From contig MGBH01000001.1 of the NCBI GenBank assembly GCA_001790095.1, forward strand, positions 1,140,001-1,172,000: a DNA stretch of 32,000 nt, written 5' to 3'. Of this stretch, positions 2,529 to 27,319 are shown piece by piece. Both the position numbers and the translations under genes were made by a program. The notes under the pieces are model-generated. The model saw only the letters and a list, made by a program, of their open reading frames with translations, did no database searches and was not told the DNA's origin. This DNA is from Candidatus Saccharimonadota bacterium (GTDB taxonomy: Bacteria > Patescibacteriota > Microgenomatia > UBA1406 > GWC2-37-13). The first letter of the stretch is position 1; each line of letters opens with the position of its first letter.

Positions 2529-4427
2529 TTATTTATGCTCCCATCTCCATATACCATCCCATAGCCGATTCTGATCCTTTTGAAGCTCAACTATTCTTTT
2601 TTGCATTATGTAGACCACAGGATCGTTGATTAATCTATCCCAAGTCTGTAGAGCTTTGGTAAATTTACCTTGCTGGTACAGGGTAAAACCTTTTTCATAC
2701 TCATTTTTTAGTATCTGATTTTCTCGAGTACAGAGCAGTGGTTGATATAACTTAACAGCCTGGTTTTTACCCTTCACGACGACCTCATCGATCAATCGAT
2801 ACATAATTGTTGGATCTTTGACTTTATTTTTTACTGCCTCCGTAATCAATATGTTTACTCCATATTTTTTTGTTAACCCCTCAACCCGAGAAGCTAGGTT
2901 TACATTATCTCCAAGTACGGTATAATCAAAACGCTTGCTTCCTCCAATATTCCCTACGATCATTTCACCACTATTAATACCTATTCCAATCTGCCAATCA
3001 GTATGCAGTTTGTGTAATGCTTCAAGCATTTTGAGAGCTGTTTTTACCGCCTTTAACTCATGTTGTTTTTCAAAAAGCGGTGCATTCCAGAAAGCCATAA
3101 TTGCATCCCCTATGAACTTATCAATAGTTCCTTGTTCATCTAAAATAAGGCTGGACATTAATTCAAGGTATTGATTGAGTGACTCAACGAGTTTTTCAGG
3201 TGGGACTTTTTCCGAGTAACTAGTAAATGATCTAATATCACAAAATAAAACCGTCATCTGTCTTTTTTCTCCTCCAAGGGCTAGTTTTTCAGGATGTTTG
3301 AGAAGGGTGGGTAATAATTTAGGACTAATATATTGTTGAAAAGCTTGTTTTAAAAACTGTCTTTCCTTACTCTGTTTGAGATTGTCAAAAACCAAAATAT
3401 AGAAAATTATCCCTAACCAAATAAATGAAAACTGCACAAAAAACCAATTAATTCCAAATTCAAAAAGCATGACTCCAACGATTTGTGTAAAAAGCCATAT
3501 AAGACCAACGGTTAGAAAACGAAAGCTTAGTTTTTTTTGAGATAGAATAAAGAATGCGAGTGTAATGACGGAAATAAAAAGGCAAATAATATAAAAATAT
3601 ATTTGTGGAATATCTCTTTGAAAACGGTTATGTAAGAGTGAATTGATAATCTGTGCATGTATCTTTATACCAGGAGTTTGTGCGCCAAAGATATCAGTGA
3701 AATTATCATCGATCTGACTTTTTAAATCTTTTGTGGTAAAGCCGACAAGAACTATTTTGTTACGAAAAGAATCTTTCGGAAATTGGCGGTTATATACATC
3801 AATAAAACTGATATGACTAAAAGCTTGACGTGTGTAATTATAATACAGAGGAGTTGATTCGTTTATACATCCTGCCAGTTTCTTACCAAGATACTGTTCA
3901 AAAACTGACGAAGCAAAACTCGTCACACAAGTGTTGGAAATATTTAACTTGTTTTGAAACTGACGGATTTTGCCGTCTGATTGACTGTTCAAATTGATAA
4001 ATCCTGAGGTGATCAAATTTGATGTATATACGGGCTGAAGAAATGTTTCATTATCAATTTTTCCAGCCAGAGTTAATGGATAATTATTTTTGGATAACTG
4101 ATACATAACTTCTTCATCTTCTTCTCTTTTATCCAAAAATAAGACGTCTATTCCTACGATCCTTGGTTTTTCAGGGTTCAGGTTAGCTAATACTTGTGCA
4201 AATACTTGTCTTGACCATGGCCAAGGACCAATCTGCTGTAGGCTTTTTTCATCGATCTCAACTATCATAATTTCTTTACGGGGAGTTAAAAATCCTTGAA
4301 GTTGATCTGTAAAAATAGTGTTTAACTGCGAAAAAAAATCAAAAGAGGCAATTTTTATTAAAAAAAACAAAAACATGATACCAAGGAAGATAAAAGTAGT
4401 TTTACTAAATAGTCGTTTATATATCAT
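2529..4427 (-). CDS. CHASE2 sensor domain / class III adenylate (guanylate) cyclase
   Basis: N-terminal CHASE2 signature IVEIDEKSLQQIGPWPWSR...IVGIDVLF, then a TM cluster, then the cyclase catalytic motifs FCDIRSFTSYSE, GDAIMAFWNAP and DYTVLGDNVNLASRVE. Confidence 0.85.
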   Translation of the reverse strand: MIYKRLFSKTTFIFLGIMFLFFLIKIASFDFFSQLNTIFTDQLQGFLTPRKEIMIVEIDEKSLQQIGPWPWSRQVFAQVLANLNPEKPRIVGIDVLFLDKREEDEEVMYQLSKNNYPLTLAGKIDNETFLQPVYTSNLITSGFINLNSQSDGKIRQFQNKLNISNTCVTSFASSVFEQYLGKKLAGCINESTPLYYNYTRQAFSHISFIDVYNRQFPKDSFRNKIVLVGFTTKDLKSQIDDNFTDIFGAQTPGIKIHAQIINSLLHNRFQRDIPQIYFYIICLFISVITLAFFILSQKKLSFRFLTVGLIWLFTQIVGVMLFEFGINWFFVQFSFIWLGIIFYILVFDNLKQSKERQFLKQAFQQYISPKLLPTLLKHPEKLALGGEKRQMTVLFCDIRSFTSYSEKVPPEKLVESLNQYLELMSSLILDEQGTIDKFIGDAIMAFWNAPLFEKQHELKAVKTALKMLEALHKLHTDWQIGIGINSGEMIVGNIGGSKRFDYTVLGDNVNLASRVEGLTKKYGVNILITEAVKNKVKDPTIMYRLIDEVVVKGKNQAVKLYQPLLCTRENQILKNEYEKGFTLYQQGKFTKALQTWDRLINDPVVYIMQKRIVELQKDQNRLWDGIWRWEHK

Positions 4428-7337: not shown

Positions 7338-7547
7338 TTATTTCCGTTTCCACCAGTCTCCAAATACATCTCTCAAATCAAGCCCAAAATAAGCAAGTGA
7401 AGATAACAATAAAAAAGATGCAGTTGCCTCATCCATATTTCCTATGAACGGAACTGTATCAGGTATAAACTCAAATATTCCAAATCCCGGATTAAATAAA
7501 TATAATCCAGACACTATCCCAATGAATGCAATCAATGATTTTTTCAC
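7338..7547 (-). CDS. DUF1232 (YkvA-like) small membrane protein
   Basis: 69 aa. FIPDTVPFIGNMDEA resembles the DUF1232 core (IPD-IP-IG-DD). Confidence 0.5.
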   Translation of the reverse strand: MKKSLIAFIGIVSGLYLFNPGFGIFEFIPDTVPFIGNMDEATASFLLLSSLAYFGLDLRDVFGDWWKRK

Positions 7548-7658
7548 AAGCGTCTGTTTGCACCAGTTAGTAATATTTTCATAGTGAGTTATAATAATGG
7601 TTATTATATCAGGAAGTTTAACATCCTTCTTTTTTGCGTCAAGGAAACAAATGAAGAT

Positions 7659-8009
7659 CTACTGTGTCAGTAATTGAAAATAGTAAATTAAAAAAAGAAT
7701 CACGGCAAAAGGAGAACTGACAAGACCAGGTATGTATCTCTTAGCTAAAATAGCTCCAGTAATATGCCATATGCCATTAGCAAACATAACGAGGTTAAAT
7801 ATTGACATTAAACCGATTCTGTAAGGATAATTTGTTATAAAAATAGCTGAGATCAATAAGGTGGAAAGAAGAATTTCCATTGTAATAAAAAACCTTCTCG
7901 ACATTTTCCAGAGAGGCCATACTTTTTCAAAGTGAGTATAAATCTCTTCTTGCGAATGAAACAAATAGATAATGACAAAGTAAGTATAGTATCTTTCAAC
8001 CAATCCCAT
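7659..8009 (-). CDS. HXXEE-domain membrane protein
   Basis: 116 aa, hydrophobic, with an N-terminal HSQEE motif (HXXEE family pattern). Tentative. Confidence 0.4.
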   Translation of the reverse strand: MGLVERYYTYFVIIYLFHSQEEIYTHFEKVWPLWKMSRRFFITMEILLSTLLISAIFITNYPYRIGLMSIFNLVMFANGIWHITGAILAKRYIPGLVSSPFAVILFLIYYFQLLTQ

Positions 8010-16758: not shown

Positions 16759-17364
16759 ATGGATATAAAAAAAATAAGTCTTTTTTTGATATCTGTATCC
16801 CTGTTTTTTATAGTATTGCTAACGGGGTGGTTTTTAGTATTTAAAAATCCCACCGATACAAATATTAATACCAGTCGTACTGCGGTTATTAAAGAAATCA
16901 GAAATTTACAAAGAATTGAAACGGCCTCTTTTACTATTGAAAAAATAATAGACGGAGGGACCAGTGGAAATGTTTTTCAGCAACTTCTTTTTGGAGACAA
17001 AATATTACTTATTGCCCACGGGCAAGTAATAGCAGGATTTGATCTATCCCAAATTTCAGAAAAAGATATAGTGGTAAAAGACAAAAATATCAGGATAACT
17101 TTACCTAAGCCACAAGTGTTAATCACCACCTTGGATAATACTCAAACGAGAGTATATGACAGAACGAGGGGAATCTTAAATCCGGGAGATAATAATTTAG
17201 AGTCCAAAGTCCGGGAAGCGGCACAAAATTCAATAAAAGAAGCCGCCTGCAAGGGGGATATTTTAAAACAAGCATCCGACAACGCCAGAAAACAACTAAC
17301 TGCATTTTTGTCTACTTTGGGATTTACTCAAATCTCAATAGACATACCTGAATCTTCCTGTTAA
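16759..17364 (+). CDS. DUF4230-like membrane-anchored protein
   Basis: 201 aa with an N-terminal TM. The segments ETASFTIEKII, LLIAHGQVIAGFDLSQI and IRITLPKPQVL follow the DUF4230 pattern. Confidence 0.6.
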   Translation: MDIKKISLFLISVSLFFIVLLTGWFLVFKNPTDTNINTSRTAVIKEIRNLQRIETASFTIEKIIDGGTSGNVFQQLLFGDKILLIAHGQVIAGFDLSQISEKDIVVKDKNIRITLPKPQVLITTLDNTQTRVYDRTRGILNPGDNNLESKVREAAQNSIKEAACKGDILKQASDNARKQLTAFLSTLGFTQISIDIPESSC

Positions 17365-17421
17365 GAAGGATTGTTTTAATATTTTAAAACGGTCTTGAAC
17401 TCAATTATCCCATAACTAGTA

Positions 17422-17823
17422 TTACGTCTCAAACCATAAAGGATTCTTGTCTTTTGGGTTTCCATAATTGTAATTAAATGTTATTTCCTCATCTTTCTTT
17501 ATATCTTTTAAGGCAGAAAATTTGATTGTTTTTTTCCTTAGTTTTATCTTGTAGGTTGCGTTTGGTTCATAAGAGTGGTTATATATTGACCCAAAACCTA
17601 ATGTGATTGCCAAACGTTCTTTGTTTTTGCCAAAATAAAAAAAGTAGGTAACAAGGATACTCTCATTTAAATTGGACATGTCGTGTCTTGAAACTAAAAT
17701 AACTGGACATATTTCAATAATTTTTCCCTTTTTAATATCGCACTTAGCGAAGACCCCTCTGTCAGCATTAAGAATTCTCGATTGGCCAATATATACTTTG
17801 TCTGAAGTGAATAGTTTCTTCAT
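17422..17823 (-). CDS. SET-domain protein (putative lysine methyltransferase)
   Basis: 133 aa with RGVFA...KGKII, NHSYEPN (NHSxxPN signature) and EEITFNY (ELxFDY-like post-SET Tyr). Confidence 0.8.
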   Translation of the reverse strand: MKKLFTSDKVYIGQSRILNADRGVFAKCDIKKGKIIEICPVILVSRHDMSNLNESILVTYFFYFGKNKERLAITLGFGSIYNHSYEPNATYKIKLRKKTIKFSALKDIKKDEEITFNYNYGNPKDKNPLWFET

Positions 17824-17829
17824 GTCGTG

Positions 17830-17838
17830 ATTATAACA
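17830..17838 (-). promoter_or_regulatory. extended -10 element (TGT-TATAAT) 6 nt upstream of the SET ATG
   Basis: The minus strand reads TGTTATAAT-CACGAC-ATG. This spacing would put the transcription start at or next to the start codon, giving a leaderless mRNA. Confidence 0.3.
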
Positions 17839-17856
17839 AAGATATCGAATCAGAAT

Positions 17857-17910
17857 GTTGAGAGTCCCGCGGCATACGTCTTAATTGCTGTGTGTGTCGG
17901 TTCAGACCCT
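17857..17910 (+). repeat. intergenic motif copy e (GTTGAGAGTCCCGCGG...GGTTCAGACC), degenerate
   Basis: GTTGAG is followed about 35 nt later by a GGT-N4-GACC palindrome. This is the weakest family member. Confidence 0.3.
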
Positions 17911-18078
17911 CTCAGTAATGCAATCTCAATCTCATTTTACTACTTTTCCAGGTTTATATCCTGAGTTTATTGGAAGGAAACCAAGGTGTTTACGCTGAGT
18001 GAGTGAAATGATTTGAAGTAAGACAGTGCTGAGGTTAATGGATCAAGTTAGAAACTAATTTATTAATATGTAAACAAT

Positions 18079-18837
18079 TTAATCAACGGGATATTTTAAA
18101 CTTCCACTGATTGTTTTTCCTGTTTTGTCTACATAAGAGTAAGCTCCACTATTACCCCAAGTAATTTTTTCTATTGGTCCTAGATTTTTATAATTATTGT
18201 CGGAATTTTTTAAATCTATAATGTGGGTTTCTGGAGCACTACCACCACAGTTCCAACATCCATAAATATATAAAGTCAGATATTGACCGTCTTTACTTAT
18301 CTCGCCGATACGAGGTACTGATGGATGATGTGAATATGACCAGACAGACTCATAAACCAATATAGATTTATTACCATTATAAAAGTAGGTTTTATATAGA
18401 ATCATTCCTTCGTTGGTACTTAATGTTGGATCTAAAGCTAAAGTGAAAATAAGAACAGATGTATTTGGGAATATTTTGTAATCAAACATTTTGGCTGTTT
18501 TACCAAATTCCTTATTTGATTCAAGGATAGTAAACCATTTTGTGTTAGGAATTTGACCAATAGAACTATCAGGAGTTTTATTTAAATCGAAATATTTGTT
18601 ACCCAATCTTATATATTTTAAATTGGAATCTATCTGAATATTTAAATTTGACTCTGTTTTATTAATAGAATCGGCATTAGTCTTTATTTGATCAATGTTA
18701 GTAATACTCTGAATTGACTGATACTGTATTCCCATAGCAAATCCAATAATAGGAAAAAGAATAAAAAGAATTGCAGCTATAACTTTTATTACGGGGTTAT
18801 TATGAGTGCCATGCTTGGTTAATAATTCCATAGTCAA
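18079..18837 (-). CDS. hypothetical membrane-anchored protein
   Basis: 252 aa with an N-terminal TM and then a beta-rich domain. The track start is TTG 18837; the ATG at 18831 is more likely. Confidence 0.45.
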   Translation of the reverse strand: MTMELLTKHGTHNNPVIKVIAAILFILFPIIGFAMGIQYQSIQSITNIDQIKTNADSINKTESNLNIQIDSNLKYIRLGNKYFDLNKTPDSSIGQIPNTKWFTILESNKEFGKTAKMFDYKIFPNTSVLIFTLALDPTLSTNEGMILYKTYFYNGNKSILVYESVWSYSHHPSVPRIGEISKDGQYLTLYIYGCWNCGGSAPETHIIDLKNSDNNYKNLGPIEKITWGNSGAYSYVDKTGKTISGSLKYPVD

Positions 18838-18921
18838 ATACCTATTGATAATAAAATTAGTATATCAAGAAATATAAAAGTTCAAACATCTTAGGTGGGT
18901 AATGTTTTTTGTATCTAGTGC

Positions 18922-19040
18922 TGGAGAGCAAGGATTCCCTTCGTCGATTTATATCATTTCATTACTCCTCAGGGTAAACTTCTCATCCTCGCTCAAAATA
19001 GTTCGTCAATCTCACCTTGCGGTGAGCTTGTCGAACTATG
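18922..19040 (-). repeat. 119-bp direct repeat unit U, copy A
   Basis: Identical at all 119 positions to 20850-20968. Minus-strand sense: a GNRA-capped hairpin (ATAGTTCG/CTCACC-GCAA-GGTGAG/CGAACTAT, 18994-19039) plus TTTT, then TGATATAAAT, then GAATCCTTGCTCTCCA, which mimics the tRNA-Gln 3' end. Confidence 0.9.
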
Positions 19041-19069
19041 TTGGCTCTGGTTGACTATGTAGGAACTTA

Positions 19070-20005
19070 TTACACCACGTTTTGTGGTTTACCGATATTG
19101 AATGCTTCAATGTTTTCAACTACTAAGTTATAAGTTTTTGCGTCAGCATCCTCGGTATTAAATGCATTGTGGGGGACGACGATTATGTTGGGATACTTAT
19201 AGTATTCATCATTTTGATCAATTACTTGCATTATCGGAGTTTCAACTCCATAACCAAATATTTTCCCAGACTTAATACCTTCCAACAACGCCATTTTATT
19301 AACAATTTTCTCTCTAGCACAGTTTACAATTATCACTCCATGTTTTACTAATTCAATTTCCTCGCTACTTATATAGTTCTCTGTTTTCGAATTTAATGGG
19401 ATGCAAATAGTGATTACATCAGATTCTTTTAAAAGAGTTATTTTATCTACTAATTCCACACCAAGCATCGGTTTTTGAGATTTGTTTATACCTAATATCC
19501 GCATATTAAAACATTTGGCAATTCTAACCACTTGTGAGCCAATGCTTCCTAACCCGAGGACTCCTAATGTTTTCCCATAGATTTCCTTTCCTTTGTATAA
19601 AGAAAAGTTGTAAGCACTATTTAACCGGGCTTCCCGGTCGAATTCATTGACTCTCTTTGCAAGATTTAAAATCATAGCCCAGGTATGCTCCGCAACAGAT
19701 TCTGCAGTTGCCCCGTGTATGTTACTAACAACAATACCTTTTTCTCGGCAATAATCTAAATCAAGCCAATCTGTTCCAATAGTTAACACCGACAGTAACT
19801 TAAGAGAAGGTAATTTCAACAATAATTCTCTTCTCAAAATTGTAACTTCGGGACCTGTTATTAAAACTTCAGCATCAGCTACTTTTTCAATAACCTCTTT
19901 TGGGGATAGGTTCTGAACGTGATAAATTGTTAGATTATGAGAATTATGTAAAGGTTTTAAATATGCGTCAATTGCTGGATCTGATGCTAAGCAAACGATG
20001 TTCAT
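19070..20005 (-). CDS. D-isomer-specific 2-hydroxyacid dehydrogenase (NAD-binding)
   Basis: 311 aa with the Rossmann motif GVLGLGSIGSQV and a catalytic Arg/Glu/His pattern (NCAREK, GVETP, VPHNAFNT). Confidence 0.85.
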   Translation of the reverse strand: MNIVCLASDPAIDAYLKPLHNSHNLTIYHVQNLSPKEVIEKVADAEVLITGPEVTILRRELLLKLPSLKLLSVLTIGTDWLDLDYCREKGIVVSNIHGATAESVAEHTWAMILNLAKRVNEFDREARLNSAYNFSLYKGKEIYGKTLGVLGLGSIGSQVVRIAKCFNMRILGINKSQKPMLGVELVDKITLLKESDVITICIPLNSKTENYISSEEIELVKHGVIIVNCAREKIVNKMALLEGIKSGKIFGYGVETPIMQVIDQNDEYYKYPNIIVVPHNAFNTEDADAKTYNLVVENIEAFNIGKPQNVV

Positions 20006-20084
20006 AAATATATTCTACCAAGTTGTTCCGTCGTCCACTCATAGTAGTGAAGTTATATGGTCGTTGTCTTGAGGAAAAAACTAG

Positions 20085-20116
20085 GTTGAGCATATCGGTC
20101 GGGACCCATTCGGTCC
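20085..20116 (+). repeat. intergenic motif copy c (GTTGAGCATATCGGTCGGGACCCATTCGGTCC)
   Basis: Shares GTTGAGCAT-N3-GGTC-N2-GAC with copies a and b, and adds a GGACC-CATTC-GGTCC hairpin. Confidence 0.5.
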
Positions 20117-20833
20117 TTATAGTTTCTTATTTGATTCTTGAGCTTTAAGATACTTAACAAATTTGTCAACAACTCTCCAGGTTTTCATCATAATATCAAC
20201 GCGTTTTTCTCCGACTACAGGTCCATATACGCCATGTCGTTGATCGCCCCCCGTTTCCTTAATTTCATTTATGTCAGATTGGTTAAGATTTAAAATCTTT
20301 ATAGCTTCTTGCCACCCCCTTGCTTTATTATTAGATTTAGTGAAAAACTTAGCTATTGTTTCAGTTGCACGTCTACAATGAAAAAATGTATCAAGAGGTC
20401 GTCCAATTGCATCTCTGAGGTCTTTCAGTACCATAGAAAGTTCTGGGATTATCAAAGCGAGCAAAAGAGTATCTTGGTAGCTTAATGGTCTATTTTTTTC
20501 GTCCTGGGTAATTTTAACTACATCCATTCCGAAAACTTCATGATATCCTGTTTCAGGAATATAAACTGATGCAATTTCTACATTGTATGTGTATCCTTTG
20601 AGATATCCATAAACATCCATAAAAGTATGAACGTTTTTTTCTATCGTATTTTTAAGATCCACGAGAGGGATTTGGGAATCAGTATCCACTTCAACAGTGA
20701 TTTGAGAAAGTAATATCGATGTTTTTATATTAGCCTCAAAAGAGGCATCGTCACTCTTAACGCGCCCATTTACAGAAGAAATTGTGATTGGAGCTCTTTC
20801 AGGATAGACTTTTCCAAAGAAAATATATTTCAT
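20117..20833 (-). CDS. hypothetical protein, C-terminal half possibly DUF4145/HEPN-like
   Basis: 238 aa with no TM. FFHCRRATETIAKFF followed about 40 aa later by IKETGGDQRHG resembles the RRxxE ... GN-x2-H pattern of DUF4145-type HEPN-like domains. By-eye inference only. Confidence 0.45.
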   Translation of the reverse strand: MKYIFFGKVYPERAPITISSVNGRVKSDDASFEANIKTSILLSQITVEVDTDSQIPLVDLKNTIEKNVHTFMDVYGYLKGYTYNVEIASVYIPETGYHEVFGMDVVKITQDEKNRPLSYQDTLLLALIIPELSMVLKDLRDAIGRPLDTFFHCRRATETIAKFFTKSNNKARGWQEAIKILNLNQSDINEIKETGGDQRHGVYGPVVGEKRVDIMMKTWRVVDKFVKYLKAQESNKKL

Positions 20834-20849
20834 ATCTGGTTCTTGTTGT

Positions 20850-20968
20850 TGGAGAGCAAGGATTCCCTTCGTCGATTTATATCATTTCATTACTCCTCAG
20901 GGTAAACTTCTCATCCTCGCTCAAAATAGTTCGTCAATCTCACCTTGCGGTGAGCTTGTCGAACTATG
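20850..20968 (-). repeat. 119-bp direct repeat unit U, copy B (immediately 3' of tRNA-Gln)
   Basis: Identical to 18922-19040. It starts 1 nt after the tRNA discriminator base. The hairpin 20926-20967 plus T-run probably terminates the tRNA transcript. Confidence 0.9.
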
Positions 20969-21041
20969 CTGGGGAGCAAGGATTCGAACCTTGAATCGCG
21001 CTGATCCAAAGTCAGGCGTGTTACCGTTACACTACTCCCCA
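20969..21041 (-). tRNA. tRNA-Gln (anticodon UUG), CCA not encoded
   Basis: Hand-folded cloverleaf. Acceptor TGGGGAG/CTCCCCA, D arm GTGT-AACGGTA-ACAC, anticodon loop CTTTGGA (one C-C mismatch at the base of the stem), T arm CAAGG-TTCGAAT-CCTTG, discriminator G. The 5' UGGGG and 3' CCCCAG ends match those of E. coli tRNA-Gln. Confidence 0.85.
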
Positions 21042-21269
21042 TGATTTTAAAAGTTCTCTTCCTTTACCACTTTTCAAAAATTGTTCGTATTTTAATGCTT
21101 CGCTTTTAATTTCGAATTCCTTAGTATAAACCACCTTCCAATTCTTTCCTTTTCTGGTTGATCGGGTAATTTTATTATTATGTTCCCAAATTCTCCTTTC
21201 AAGGTCTGAGGTATAACCAGTATATGTGTTTTTTAATTCATCTTTCAGAACATATACAGTGTATGCCAT
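21027..21269 (-). CDS. GIY-YIG nuclease-domain protein (short, UPF0213-like)
   Basis: MAYTVYVLKDE...TYTGYTSDLERRIWEHN...E (GIY / YIG / R / E pattern). The track start is TTG 21281; the ATG at 21269 is preferred. The last five codons, TGG GGA GTA GTG TAA, are the first 15 nt of the tRNA-Gln. Confidence 0.8.
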   Translation of the reverse strand: MAYTVYVLKDELKNTYTGYTSDLERRIWEHNNKITRSTRKGKNWKVVYTKEFEIKSEALKYEQFLKSGKGRELLKSWGVV

Positions 21270-21293
21270 TCTTGTTTTCAATATTTAAAGATA

Positions 21294-21336
21294 CTGATCC
21301 AAAGTCAGGCGCCCGCCTGAGGCGGGCTACTCCCCA
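21294..21336 (-). pseudogene. 5' fragment of a second tRNA-Gln (acceptor 5' strand, D arm, anticodon arm); no T arm or 3' acceptor
   Basis: TGGGGAGTAG (10 nt) and CGCCTGACTTTGGATCAG (18 nt) are identical to the intact tRNA. The D arm is replaced by the GC-rich GCCC-GCCTCAGGC-GGGC, which can also form a 7-bp hairpin GCCCGCC-TCA-GGCGGGC. Confidence 0.6.
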
Positions 21337-21353
21337 AGTGTTTTGCAAGCTCT

Positions 21354-21362
21354 ATTTTACCA
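21354..21362 (-). promoter_or_regulatory. candidate extended -10 promoter (TGG-TAAAAT) upstream of the tRNA fragment / GIY-YIG / tRNA-Gln unit
   Basis: The minus strand reads TGGTAAAAT ending 17 nt before the TGGGGAG of the 5' tRNA fragment. No good -35 element was seen. Confidence 0.3.
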
Positions 21363-21553
21363 AAAAAACATGCCTTATGGGTTTACGATTCTCTAGTACG
21401 ATTGAAGTTCAATTTGCTTAATGGTAAAGATGATGATATACTACTTAATAGAAGAATTTCAGTCACTTAATGGGTCTAGGTTTGGAGATTAGGGTAAAAC
21501 AACTTCATTTAAGGATACTTGGTTTTCTTCATGAAAGGAGGTGAAAACATACA

Positions 21554-21874
21554 ATGGACAAAAAGAAATTATACGTCGGAAATCTACCTTGGTCAATTGA
21601 GGATGCTGGACTTAAAGATTTATTCGCACAATACGGAGAAGTCGTTGAGGCAGTTGTCATCAAAGATCGTTATTCAGGTAGATCAAAAGGTTTCGGATTC
21701 GTAACTTTTGCAACTGAAGAAGCTGCAGCACAAGCTGAAGCAGAAATGGCTGGAAAAGATATGGAAGGCCGCAAAATCGTCGTTAACGTCGCAAAACCTA
21801 GAGAGGAAAGGCCTCGAGGAGGTGGCGGAGGTTATCGAGGAGGAGGAGATAGGGACAATAGACGACCTTACTAA
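21554..21874 (+). CDS. RRM-type RNA-binding protein with RGG-rich tail
   Basis: RNP-2 LYVGNL and RNP-1 KGFGFVTF, a C-terminal RPRGGGGGYRGGGDR tail, and a strong SD AAAGGAGGTGA. Confidence 0.9.
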   Translation: MDKKKLYVGNLPWSIEDAGLKDLFAQYGEVVEAVVIKDRYSGRSKGFGFVTFATEEAAAQAEAEMAGKDMEGRKIVVNVAKPREERPRGGGGGYRGGGDRDNRRPY

Positions 21875-21880
21875 ACCAAT

Positions 21881-21950
21881 AAAAAAACACTATTTGCTTC
21901 TTGGGGTCTAAAATAAAGACCGCGTAGAGAGGGGGTAGTGTTTTTTTTAT
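21881..21950 (+). terminator. probable intrinsic terminator after the RRM gene
   Basis: AAAAAAACACTA (21881-21892) pairs with TAGTGTTTTTTTT (21936-21948). An inner GGTCT/AGACC hairpin is present, and a T8 run follows. Confidence 0.45.
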
Positions 21951-21972
21951 GGGAGCGATATAATATTGTCAG

Positions 21973-23454
21973 ATGAAAAAACAGAATCTCCATTTACTTG
22001 CGACGGTTTCCTTATCAATTTTTTTATTTATCTTTCTTCATATCTTTTACACAGGTGTGGTTACTACTCCAACGGAATTAGACAGTGTCATGTATCATAT
22101 ACCAATTGCTAAAAGTTACCTCAACGGTCGCATATTTTCTTCCCCCTCATCTCCACTTATGCATCGGTATTTTCCCGGCGCATCTGAGGGTATACTTGCT
22201 TTTTTTATGCTTCTGCATATTCCCCTAAACCTATACAATGTTTTAGGGATACTATGTCTTTTTCTTGCTTGCTTTGCGTTGGGTAAACGTGCTGGGTTAG
22301 GGACAGATTTATCTTTGTTATTTGCAACCAGCTTCTCATCGCTCAATGGGATTGTCCGATGGGCAAATGTCCAGGTTGTAGATATTTGGATGGGAGTATT
22401 TTATGCATGTTTGATCTTTATGTTTCTCAAACCGGAAAAAAAACCCGGTTATTTTTTTAAGTTAGGTATTGTGACAGGGATGATAGTTGGAACTAAATAT
22501 TCTGGCCCCTTGTTTCTTAGCGTTTTGCTACTTTTTTACGGAAAAAAACTAATTGAAAAATTAGACATCAAACGATTAATATGGTTTCTTATTCCGTTTT
22601 GTATATGTGGACTTTTTTGGTATATCCGTAACTATCTGGTAAAAGGCAATCCTGTTTACCCGATTGCTCTTTTTTCATGGCCGGGAGTAGAGAATTGGGC
22701 CCTTGAGACGCCAGTATGGAAAGGAGCAATCTCTTATCCCTTAAGTATGTTAAGCGCTCTGATAAGCGAATACACGGGATGGGGAGTGTTAGTTATATTG
22801 TCGCCTATTCTTGTTTTGTATATGAGGGGGATTTCCTTGATCTTTATCACAATTGCTCTTTTTAATCTTATGGTTTATTCTTTGTTGCCAAATGGCGATG
22901 CCTATTTGGTGCACGTATCAAACCTTCGATACTCCTATCCTGTTTTTATTTTATTCATACTAGCGGTTTTTGAGTTTGCAAAGCAAAAAAAGAAAGAAGA
23001 AATACTAGCAGTTTTTGCTATTGGAAATATGCTATTTTCTTTGCAATTCCCATATCATCCCAAGCTGCTTTTTTTATATATTCCTCTTCTTATCATGATT
23101 TGGTTATTTGCAAAACAAAATTATATATGGGTGTATAATAATAAGTATTATAAGTTTATATATCATATGAAAAATAAACTTGAAAAAGGAGGAAGTTCTG
23201 TTATCGTACTTCTCCTTATGATTATTGCAGTTGTAGTGGTTGGAGCTATGATCTTGATGAAAAAAGGACCTGAGAAAAAAGAAGGCGGATTATTTGTATC
23301 AGGTACGGTCAAACAACAAGATCAAAATGCAGCCTCCTCCACAGAGAGCACTGCTGATCAAGAAACAGATAGTGAAATATCAACACTTGAACAAGATCTT
23401 GATGAAATTGATAAAAGCCTTAATGACGCTCCAATTGACGTTATGGCAGAATAG
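21973..23454 (+). CDS. multi-pass membrane protein (GT-C/ArnT-PMT-like glycosyltransferase fold suspected) with acidic C-terminal extension
   Basis: 493 aa with about 11 TM helices in residues 1-390. This is followed by an in-frame module starting at M399 (23167) with its own TM and an acidic tail. The family call is tentative. Confidence 0.4.
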   Translation: MKKQNLHLLATVSLSIFLFIFLHIFYTGVVTTPTELDSVMYHIPIAKSYLNGRIFSSPSSPLMHRYFPGASEGILAFFMLLHIPLNLYNVLGILCLFLACFALGKRAGLGTDLSLLFATSFSSLNGIVRWANVQVVDIWMGVFYACLIFMFLKPEKKPGYFFKLGIVTGMIVGTKYSGPLFLSVLLLFYGKKLIEKLDIKRLIWFLIPFCICGLFWYIRNYLVKGNPVYPIALFSWPGVENWALETPVWKGAISYPLSMLSALISEYTGWGVLVILSPILVLYMRGISLIFITIALFNLMVYSLLPNGDAYLVHVSNLRYSYPVFILFILAVFEFAKQKKKEEILAVFAIGNMLFSLQFPYHPKLLFLYIPLLIMIWLFAKQNYIWVYNNKYYKFIYHMKNKLEKGGSSVIVLLLMIIAVVVVGAMILMKKGPEKKEGGLFVSGTVKQQDQNAASSTESTADQETDSEISTLEQDLDEIDKSLNDAPIDVMAE

Positions 23455-27199: not shown

Positions 27200-27319
27200 G
27201 CCCCGGCTACGACCTACTTTCCCTCTGCGAAAACGCAGAAGTATCATAAGCGCTAACTCGTTTCACGACCTTGTTCGGGATGGGAAAGGGTGGTGCCAAG
27301 TCGCTTCAATAACCAGGAC
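27200..27319 (-). rRNA. rrf: 5S ribosomal RNA
   Basis: The minus strand reads GTCCTGGTTATTGAAGCGAC...CCCATCCCGAACAAGGTCGTGAAACG...GGGAAAGTAGGTCGTAGCCGGGGC. The conserved CCGAAC/GTGAAACG and AGTAGGTCG blocks are present. Helix I forms between GTCCTGGT and GCCGGGGC. A T8 run follows the 3' end. Confidence 0.85.

Follow-up and report, generated by a model that had tools for sequence, protein, structure and literature searches.

A repeat pair beside a tRNA-Gln gene

Here we analyse a repeat pair in a 32,000-nt stretch of contig MGBH01000001.1 from a Candidatus Saccharimonadota bacterium (the whole stretch is hereafter the window, and positions are counted from its first letter). The pair consists of two copies of a 119-bp unit, termed U. 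One of them (copy B) abuts an intact tRNA-Gln gene and the other (copy A) lies beyond two protein-coding genes. Read on the strand of the tRNA, each copy comprises a hairpin (H1), a copy of the 5' strand of the tRNA T-stem, a segment termed CORE and a tail that copies the 3' end of the tRNA. The features are listed in the order in which they follow one another on the tRNA strand (ORF, open reading frame).

20969-21041 (-): intact tRNA-Gln(UUG) (ARAGORN; Rfam RF00005, 61 bits)
20850-20968 (-): U copy B, ORF-less, made of H1, T-stem copy, CORE and tRNA tail copy (nhmmer with the family profile, E=2e-12; aligned with 20 family members)
20926-20967 (-): hairpin H1 of copy B, ATAGTTCG-A-CAA-G-CTCACC GCAA GGTGAG-A-TTG-A-CGAACTAT (fold and family alignment)
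20866-20915 (-): CORE of copy B, GATGAGAAGTTTACCCTGA + variable hairpin tip + CGACGAAGG (19-mer scan, invariant columns, T-stem copy analysis)
20850-20865 (-): tail of copy B, GAATCCTTGCTCTCCA, equal to tRNA-Gln G57-A72 with one mismatch, C69T (sequence comparison)
20117-20833 (-): 238-aa ORF, first gene of the bracketed segment; DUF8168_N/DUF8168_C (precomputed Pfam)
19070-20005 (-): D-isomer-specific 2-hydroxyacid dehydrogenase, second gene of the bracketed segment (Pfam 2-Hacid_dh_C, 2.4e-40; NCBIfam)
19041-19069 (-): 'ext' (AAGTTCCTACATAGTCAACCAGAGCCAAC), resembling a pseudo-tRNA 3' end, between the dehydrogenase stop codon and copy A (motif scan)
18922-19040 (-): U copy A, identical to copy B, directly after 'ext' and 3' of the dehydrogenase gene (nhmmer, ~1e-12)
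18998-19039 (-): hairpin H1 of copy A, the same hairpin as in copy B
18938-18987 (-): CORE of copy A, the same segment as in copy B
18922-18937 (-): tail of copy A, GAATCCTTGCTCTCCA, the same tail as in copy B

An earlier note on this DNA, made from the letters alone, had pointed out the pair, and its description of the locus holds. By pairwise comparison the copies are the same at 119/119 positions (18922-19040 against 20850-20968), and the first base of copy B, 20968, adjoins discriminator G73 of tRNA-Gln. A repeat finder carries the similarity to 126 nt at 98% and found no other repeat longer than 30 nt in 17000-23000. The segment copied at the end of each unit is tRNA-Gln G57-A72, from the T-loop to the 3' end. 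The tail GAATCCTTGCTCTCCA and the tRNA (GAATCCTTGCTCCCCA) agree at 15/16 positions, one base apart as the note had said, and allowing a 3-nt gap lengthens the match to AAGG---GAATCCTTGCTCTCCA. This 16-mer has two exact matches and one match with a single mismatch, inside the tRNA (0.3 expected by chance at ≤3 mismatches); the CORE 19-mer is exact at 20897-20915 and 18969-18987.

The note's account of the interval was likewise accurate: only the 2-hydroxyacid dehydrogenase and the 238-aa ORF lie between the copies, and no gene for a tyrosine or serine recombinase or IntI was called in the segment or within 10 kb on either side. The 238-aa ORF gave no match in our Pfam-A copy, NCBIfam, PADLOC or PHROGs, and a 252-aa ORF flanking the cassette (window 18079-18837) gave nothing informative in PADLOC, PHROGs or NCBIfam. 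The GC content of the bracketed segment is unremarkable.

A repeat of 119-126 bp is near read and k-mer length and might have arisen in assembly, a possibility that the earlier note had named as one that would undo its reading. However, seven loci from five samples, produced by different assemblers, have both copies at the same 1928-nt spacing with 0-1 differences from the window. Among them are two ENA assemblies made with k=141, two from JGI, and MGBF01000001, a 1.2-Mb NCBI contig of Candidatus Roizmanbacteria RIFOXYB2_FULL_38_10. This establishes the repeat as real, and we give an assembly artefact practically no weight.

A family of elements 3' of tRNA genes

A metagenome scan with the 20-mer spanning the tail junction retrieved diverged U units in three other contigs. 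One of the three, L004, is a syntenic relative in which the U units bracket a different gene. All four versions of U (window and three contigs) have GATGAGAAGTTTACCCTGA in common. When this 19-mer was scanned against one genome per GTDB species, it matched 117 genome stretches, with about 4 expected by chance for 596 Gb (our own estimate); some six matches, which have no other feature of the element, are chance or coding matches. An alignment of U with 20 elements of other genomes shows conserved H1 arms and no variation in the CORE 19-mer. The invariance is to be expected, because most of the aligned sequences were retrieved with the 19-mer.

Carriers among the Patescibacteria comprise Curtiss-, Levy-, Roizman-, Woese-, Gottesman-, Chisholm-, Davies- and Dojkabacteria, Peribacteria/Peregrinibacteria, Paceibacterota and Saccharibacteria. 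Those among the Bacteroidota include cultured Winogradskyella, Aequorivita, Sinomicrobium, Halomarinibacterium and Dyadobacter, and there is also one Chlorobiota metagenome-assembled genome (MAG). Many MAGs titled 'uncultured Gammaproteobacteria' (Third Party Annotation, TPA) carry the element as well (L009, L010, L013, L017, L026 and ~20 further loci), in a layout indistinguishable from that in Patescibacteria; these taxonomic labels may be unreliable. Searched for a phage or plasmid origin, the element had no match in IMG/VR, INPHARED or PLSDB. No description of it was found in the searchable literature, raw sequence motif included, and the family is apparently previously undescribed.

That U might be a generic genome-wide repeat had been the other finding named as fatal to the earlier reading. 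U does recur in many genomes; its tie is to tRNAs in general, not to tRNA-Gln. A same-strand tRNA lies within 200 nt upstream of 82 of the 130 instances, with 27 anticodon types represented, and the orientation of the element is always that of the tRNA. The tail junction reads ...GAAGG|GAATCC in 110/130 instances, and 51 of the 82 tRNA-adjacent elements end in an exact 18-20-nt copy of the local tRNA, which invariably spans T-loop G57 through the discriminator or an encoded CCA. The few bases preceding GATGAG duplicate the T-stem 5' strand (5/5 identical in 20/51 elements, 4/5 in 19/51), and 27 of 45 differences in this copy break the pairing. Judged by these alignments, the constant module is a copy of tRNA positions ~50-73 with CORE in place of T54-C56.

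What the earlier note called a tRNA-Gln 3'-end mimic is a target duplication, made or carried along on entry of the element. The note took this remnant for the scar of site-specific integration into a tRNA gene. It does mark, in target-derived sequence, an insertion at a tRNA 3' end, but the inserted thing is the ~103-nt unit and not the 1.8-kb segment, because U follows 27 tRNA types in ~100 other genomes, mostly without a cassette.

The part between tRNA and constant module varies. The H1 arm motif (TTCGRCARGCTCA / TGAGNTTGNCGAA type) is present in 41/130 instances, the rest having a plain terminator or nothing there, and in 14 cases (spacing ≤20 nt) nothing separates the tRNA from the module. 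Tandem arrays and U copies without an adjacent tRNA also occur. RNase P RNA or another RNA gene was considered as the upstream partner of the tRNA-less copies and rejected: Rfam found none, and returned instead an unrelated tmRNA and a tRNA interrupted by a group I intron. The group I intron at L110:1572-1759 in a Daviesbacteria MAG (RF00028, 56.7 bits) lies inside a tRNA gene, with U directly after the tRNA; ARAGORN misses this tRNA because the intron interrupts the gene.

A GIY-YIG gene in the loop of H1

With the GIY-YIG protein encoded beside tRNA-Gln in the window as query, phmmer found 28 GIY-YIG ORFs in the ~117 loci. Six loci share a full-length layout: a tRNA or ext-like sequence, the H1 5' arm, a ~95-aa GIY-YIG ORF, the H1 3' arm, CORE and tail. 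In three of the six (L017, L035, L105) a tRNA directly precedes the H1 arm. The H1 3' arm overlaps the conserved C-terminus of the ORF (...CTEFxEAL), and the stem runs into the coding region with a compensatory change, CAAG/CTTG in L035 against CAGG/CCTG in L059. Because the ORF lies in the H1 loop there, U carries a tetraloop where these autonomous copies carry a gene. Neither H1 loop in the window holds a UPF0213-type ORF; both are GCAA tetraloops, which makes the two copies ORF-less derivatives. Such copies are far commoner than ORF-bearing ones.

The layout also served as a prediction. Homologues of one H1-embedded protein fall into 454 clusters (E≤1e-8), of which the best 120 have 63-79% identity. 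Homologues were chosen without regard to any DNA motif, and DNA was available for 3 of 4. The layout was found again in three distinct loci: L136 reads tRNA-Asn, H1 arm, ORF, H1 arm, variant core and exact 18-nt tail, and L137 and L134/135 have the same full-length layout after ext-like sequences.

UPF0213/YhbQ-type GIY-YIG proteins are related to SLX1 structure-specific nucleases (CDD). The H1-embedded proteins resemble them in that their closest matches among solved structures are the UPF0213 proteins 1ZG2 (E=3.5e-7) and 1YWL (1.2e-6) and that the catalytic Y, Y-G, R and E are invariant. No function, target or tRNA-linked genomic association of UPF0213 was found in the searchable literature.

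The autonomous elements often have variant cores (GATGAGAAAC..., TGTGAGTTTACTTCGAG..., tandem GCTGAGCGAAGCCGAAGC), for example at L105:5240-5300, L065:380-445, L134:1800-1870 and L136:1800-1850; the exact 19-mer behind the search thus captures only part of the family.

Taken with the copied tail, the H1-embedded gene leads us to read U, with a probability of roughly 0.6, as an ORF-less, non-autonomous representative of a small selfish element family whose members sit immediately 3' of tRNA genes in the orientation of the tRNA. A unit has three parts: hairpin H1, whose loop holds the ~95-aa UPF0213-type GIY-YIG gene in autonomous copies; a T-stem 5'-strand copy followed by the conserved CORE (GATGAGAAGTTTACCCTGA...) where T54-C56 would be; and a copied tRNA 3' end that begins at G57.

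The orthologous tRNA-Gln in related lineages

Four related lineages with RRM-tRNA-Gln synteny were reached via homologues of a neighbouring 493-aa membrane protein. The earlier note had proposed a comparison with relatives that carry tRNA-Gln and a single U. At the orthologous tRNA-Gln, U is present in the window and in L004, around a different gene, and three of the four lineages (L128/129, L130/131, L132/133) have no U there. L130/131 has the window's tRNA-Gln variant and the same upstream GIY-YIG gene, yet no U. Its tRNA-Gln runs into ACATGAGAAGAACCG, which resembles the ACAACAAGAACCAG that follows the tail of copy B in the window, and because of this resemblance we place U between the tRNA and an old flank. 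The genes downstream of tRNA-Gln differ in every lineage, and the region 3' of the tRNA is supported as an insertion hotspot.

Such variable gene content bears on the explanation that the earlier note preferred, namely that the 1.8-kb segment is an integrative island in tRNA-Gln, with the two units as attL and attR and a 1928-bp circle as the excised form. Direct repeats with a copy of the tRNA 3' end do bracket the segment, and genes lie between U copies elsewhere too (L004, with its different gene, L022, L023 and L113). The 119 bp of perfect identity would permit RecA-mediated excision. The identity block moreover starts in the T-loop, as in the tRNA-integrating islands and prophages with T-loop-type att sites that Williams reportedly described in Nucleic Acids Res in 2002. 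As in those islands, the repeat reaches from the T-loop to the tRNA 3' end, an intact tRNA stands at one end and a displaced 3' fragment at the other, and accretion is in tandem.

Several observations argue against an island. With no integrase within 10 kb on either side, a tyrosine or serine integrase is missing, and the 'island' of the family is just 60-450 bp. Repeats of an island are confined to a tRNA-derived block, whereas here 16 of the 119 bases are tRNA-derived and the other 103 belong to H1 and CORE. The conserved insert splits the T-stem copy from G57, which would be intolerable for a recombinase core site, and one element family serves at least 27 tRNA types, standing alone and mostly cassette-free after them. 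The distal boundary of the segment in the window is 'ext', not a tRNA-Gln end, and the GC content does not set the segment apart. Among 24 contigs with the flanking gene there was no deletion allele or circle, and the cassette is kept in 24/24; excision, if any, is therefore rare. The att-type excision of the cassette thus found no support, and we consider the island distinctly unlikely.

Two further features, on the 5' side of tRNA-Gln, bear on how the copies came to be identical.

21027-21269 (-): 80-aa GIY-YIG gene directly 5' of tRNA-Gln, part of a second, mirror-type element (Pfam GIY-YIG, 2.7e-14)
21294-21337 (-): partial tRNA-Gln copy (positions 1-10 and 25-41) with the D-arm swapped for the GC hairpin CCCGCCTCAGGCGGGC (repeat finder)

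All three substitutions that separate the window's tRNA-Gln from that of L130 are also in the upstream partial tRNA copy (3/3), which indicates homogenisation at the locus. The earlier note had taken zero divergence to mean either a recent event or ongoing homogenisation; for the second of these the locus now has evidence from a neighbouring repeat. As to the first, the U pair of L004 differs (~2 mismatches across H1, different cores, different tails), and on that account the perfect identity in the window is recent. The identical copies might be explained by one having lately been copied from the other, or by gene conversion.

The 80-aa window protein is 37% identical to the H1-embedded family, and its gene lies 59 nt from U. 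It belongs to a mirror-type arrangement in which a partial tRNA 5' copy, its D-arm/D-loop replaced by one or two GC hairpins, stands upstream of a GIY-YIG gene; the arrangement recurs at L130:6000-6420, L106:3740-4140 and L099 (-, oriented 7480-7860), besides window 21027-21337 (-). The partial copies of the window and L130 each track the substitutions of their own tRNA-Gln, a pattern of concerted evolution. Elsewhere in the window, a lone 5S rRNA gene lies at 27201-27317 (-), with no 23S or 16S match in the 32 kb.

Fold and conservation of the unit

On the tRNA strand U folds into two domains, with a minimum free energy of -41.6 kcal/mol (z = -5.4). The first is H1, whose ~20-bp stem is interrupted by two 1x1 mismatches and capped by a GCAA loop. 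The second is closed by pairing of GAGCGAGGAU with AUCCUUGCUC in the tRNA-like tail, around ~50 nt. Across 21 ORF-less elements, 91.7% of H1 positions are paired and seven pairs have changed on both sides, and the structure scores better than all 500 shuffles and all slid registers. Among the non-Watson-Crick combinations, G.U (31) exceeds A.C (6), by which the tRNA-sense strand likely folds single-stranded, most simply as read-through RNA. ORF-less H1 is often topped by stable tetraloops such as GCAA and UUCG. From the alignments, H1 may reasonably be taken for a putative RNase III-type or stabilising stem around the ORF.

The earlier note had read each unit as a terminator followed by a promoter. 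The GCAA-capped hairpin is real; a terminator scan made no call, and the T-run is absent in relatives (L004, L007 and others). The -10-like TGATATAAAT, situated at the tip of the second stem where the sequence varies, lacks conservation (it is missing from L004, L007 and other members) and received no promoter call. Neither conservation nor the scans back the proposal.

Known RNA families gave no better match. When the covariance models of Rfam 15 were run, a check that the note had suggested for U, only the tRNA reached the gathering threshold and nothing in U rose above noise at E≤10. Comparison of CORE by eye with hammerhead, twister, pistol, hatchet and hepatitis delta virus (HDV)-like ribozymes ended in rejection: CUGA...GAA looks hammerhead-like, but NGA and the stem layout misfit, and the motif is broken in L007 and L004. 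Covariation in the second stem (P1) had been a candidate for evidence of RNA function. It lies above shuffles, yet it is the product of copying both T-stem strands from the tRNA; since most differences in the T-stem copy break pairing, it reflects DNA copying and not selection. A minihelix, with a 5' strand pairing to the acceptor strand, was discarded too (pairing 0.5 against 0.35-0.47 in shuffles beyond position 65), and the 10-bp stem of the window unit is not a family feature.

Each element has three occurrences of CTGAG-N4-6-CGAAG, one in either arm of H1 and one in the stem of CORE, a recurrence that may point to a shared ligand. Stand-alone CCCTTCGACAGGCTCAGGG-type hairpins are also scattered through carrier genomes on either strand; loci with the CTGAG-N4-6-CGAAG motif include L123 (-) 6801 and 6942, L124:4820 and L113:1580.

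These properties raise the question of whether U is instead a host module: a cis-acting RNA cassette for processing or insulation within transcripts that read through the tRNA, with the GIY-YIG genes as secondary invaders of its loop. H1 would then be an RNase III-type stem or a terminator, the T-arm/acceptor mimic a 3'-end or RNase P/Z signal, and the module would be duplicated wherever a boundary is needed. The constant tRNA orientation, the compensatory changes and G.U:A.C ratio of 31:6 in H1, the stable tetraloops on ORF-less hairpins and the numerical excess of ORF-less copies all fit such a role, as does the high conservation of CORE, though most sequences were retrieved by its 19-mer. 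However, the element is dispensable, given that three of the four related lineages lack it at the orthologous tRNA-Gln, and its T-stem copy decays without keeping the pairing. Tandem arrays and tRNA-less copies resemble repeat dynamics, and there is a tight coupling to one GIY-YIG subfamily, with the 3' end of the gene overlapping an H1 arm. We therefore hold the host module to be unlikely.

The 'ext' repeat

In place of the tRNA-Gln end, 'ext' precedes copy A, beginning three bases past the dehydrogenase stop codon. It has a single match in the window, with 0 expected by chance. In L004, 'ext' precedes the distal U too, though the bracketed gene differs, and it stands before many U copies that lack an adjacent tRNA (L004, L125, L111 and others). 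Copies of 'ext' that stand without U follow four successive genes in L034, and two more are in L023. The repeat opens like a T-loop (RGTTC) and often closes like the local acceptor end, and we read it as a pseudo-tRNA 3' end that is a secondary target for U. Its origin could lie in older att-like remnants or in the boundaries of a cassette array.

Across genomes 'ext' measures ~29-34 nt (RGTTCYWACATAGTC...GCCAAC), lies a few bases past stop codons and forms arrays after consecutive genes near tRNAs or U. Sites were recorded at L034:277-323, 723-769, 2147-2193 and 3357-3403, as two copies in L023, and in L111, L125 and L077.

Arrays of this kind suggest an integron-like cassette array anchored at a tRNA, with 'ext' and/or U as the recombination site. 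In L034 four consecutive genes each have a 34-nt ext 3' of them; L023 runs tRNA-Trp, U, gene, ext, U, gene, ext; and the window and L004 hold different genes between tRNA-Gln and the same ext plus U. Yet the loci with gene calls that were inspected have no integron integrase or recombinase, and by our own reading of the sequences neither ext nor U has the attC R''/R' cores (RYYYAAC ... GTTRRRY consensus). The window has only one ext copy, and the L034 array genes are partly housekeeping-looking (for example, a protein with a tRNA-binding domain). For U itself we regard this explanation as highly improbable; the cassette idea may apply at the level of tRNA...ext, with U as a separate tenant of both boundaries.

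A proposed mechanism of spread

U would work most like a free-standing homing-endonuclease cassette with derivatives resembling miniature inverted-repeat transposable elements (MITEs), an analogy that draws first on SegB of phage T4. SegB, a GIY-YIG homing endonuclease encoded by a free-standing gene among the clustered tRNA genes of T4, has a 27-bp site centred on GGTTCRANTCC of the TψC arm and frequently cleaves immediately 3' of CCAR (PMC2330249). With the elements here it shares a GIY-YIG gene among tRNA genes, a universal TψC target and so many tRNA species, and a cut where the elements begin; the junctions in the window read CCAG|CA and CCAA|CA. The two systems also differ. SegB is phage-borne, ~220 aa long and has a DNA-binding part, whereas the elements here lie on chromosomes and encode ~95-aa UPF0213 catalytic domains. 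No ORF-enclosing hairpin, CORE, duplication of tRNA nt 57-73 or ORF-less derivative has been reported for SegB.

Because SegB cuts near the tRNA 3' end, where the elements start, we favour nuclease-driven copying into tRNA 3' flanks. The element would spread in the manner of a free-standing homing endonuclease: the nuclease, aimed at the universal TψC motif, would cut near the 3' end of the tRNA, and repair of the break would copy the element in. ORF-less copies such as U might be served by a nuclease supplied in trans, or might be plain duplications made during repair. H1 would act as a single-stranded (RNA) stem in tRNA read-through transcripts.

Several points weigh against the selfish-element reading. 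Every mechanistic step is inferred for the family, by analogy. The ~95-aa protein has little beyond its catalytic domain, and its route to a tRNA gene is unaccounted for; so is immunity to self-cleavage, the occupied allele retaining an intact tRNA and TψC motif. A plain target-site duplication would not put CORE inside the copied T-arm. In L004 the tail of the proximal unit matches the other tRNA-Gln variant, which shows that tails can be inherited instead of being copied from the local tRNA, and copy A lacks a flanking duplicate of its target. Because the family was sampled with the exact 19-mer as seed, the conservation of that 19-mer is partly circular, and the extreme conservation of CORE together with the G.U bias on the sense strand could equally be host-level RNA function.

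A further idea, which we regard as a long shot, is that CORE and tail together are an RNA partner of the minimal GIY-YIG nuclease. H1, GAGAAGUUUA and a GA-rich stem would form the scaffold, and the 18-20-nt tail would target or license the nuclease to tRNA genes. The idea is compatible with a protein that has no visible DNA-binding domain and with an RNA structure selected on the sense strand; it also agrees with the position of the target-matching segment, which sits at the exact 3' edge of the scaffold and varies with the tRNA. If true, this would be an RNA-guided or RNA-scaffolded homing system, a new enzymatic class. Transposon-end guide RNAs, the ωRNAs of TnpB and IscB, offer a likeness, in that a conserved structured RNA at the end of the element is followed by 18-20 nt matching the target. 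The likeness is purely formal: the elements here have no RuvC or HNH effector, and their would-be guide is partly paired in cis and also matches the resident tRNA.

The second half of the analogy is that with MITE-like derivatives. Mobile elements have ORF-less derivatives of the MITE kind, and there are ORF-less group I introns whose relatives hold a homing-endonuclease gene in a peripheral loop. In the same way the autonomous form here has a nuclease ORF in a hairpin loop, and abundant short forms keep the structured ends. In contrast to group I introns, the element has no recognisable ribozyme core (Rfam, E≤10), lies outside the tRNA and leaves nothing to splice. U is not an Rfam family, an integrase island or an integron cassette, because the defining features of each were looked for and are lacking.

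Implications

For annotation, such repeats should be called att sites of islands only with caution; the 19-mer together with a tRNA tail copy can serve as a marker of the element. If the selfish-element reading is true, the tRNA genes of Patescibacteria and Bacteroidota host a common, unannotated class of selfish element, built around the smallest GIY-YIG nucleases known (UPF0213/YhbQ), which would give that protein family a biological context. The class would explain many of the 'pseudo-tRNA' fragments and repeats beside tRNA genes in metagenome bins, as well as the variability 3' of tRNAs in these streamlined genomes. It would also provide a conserved ~50-nt RNA/DNA module open to study in cultured flavobacteria, of interest for the biology of mobile elements, of candidate phyla radiation (CPR) genomes and of tRNA.

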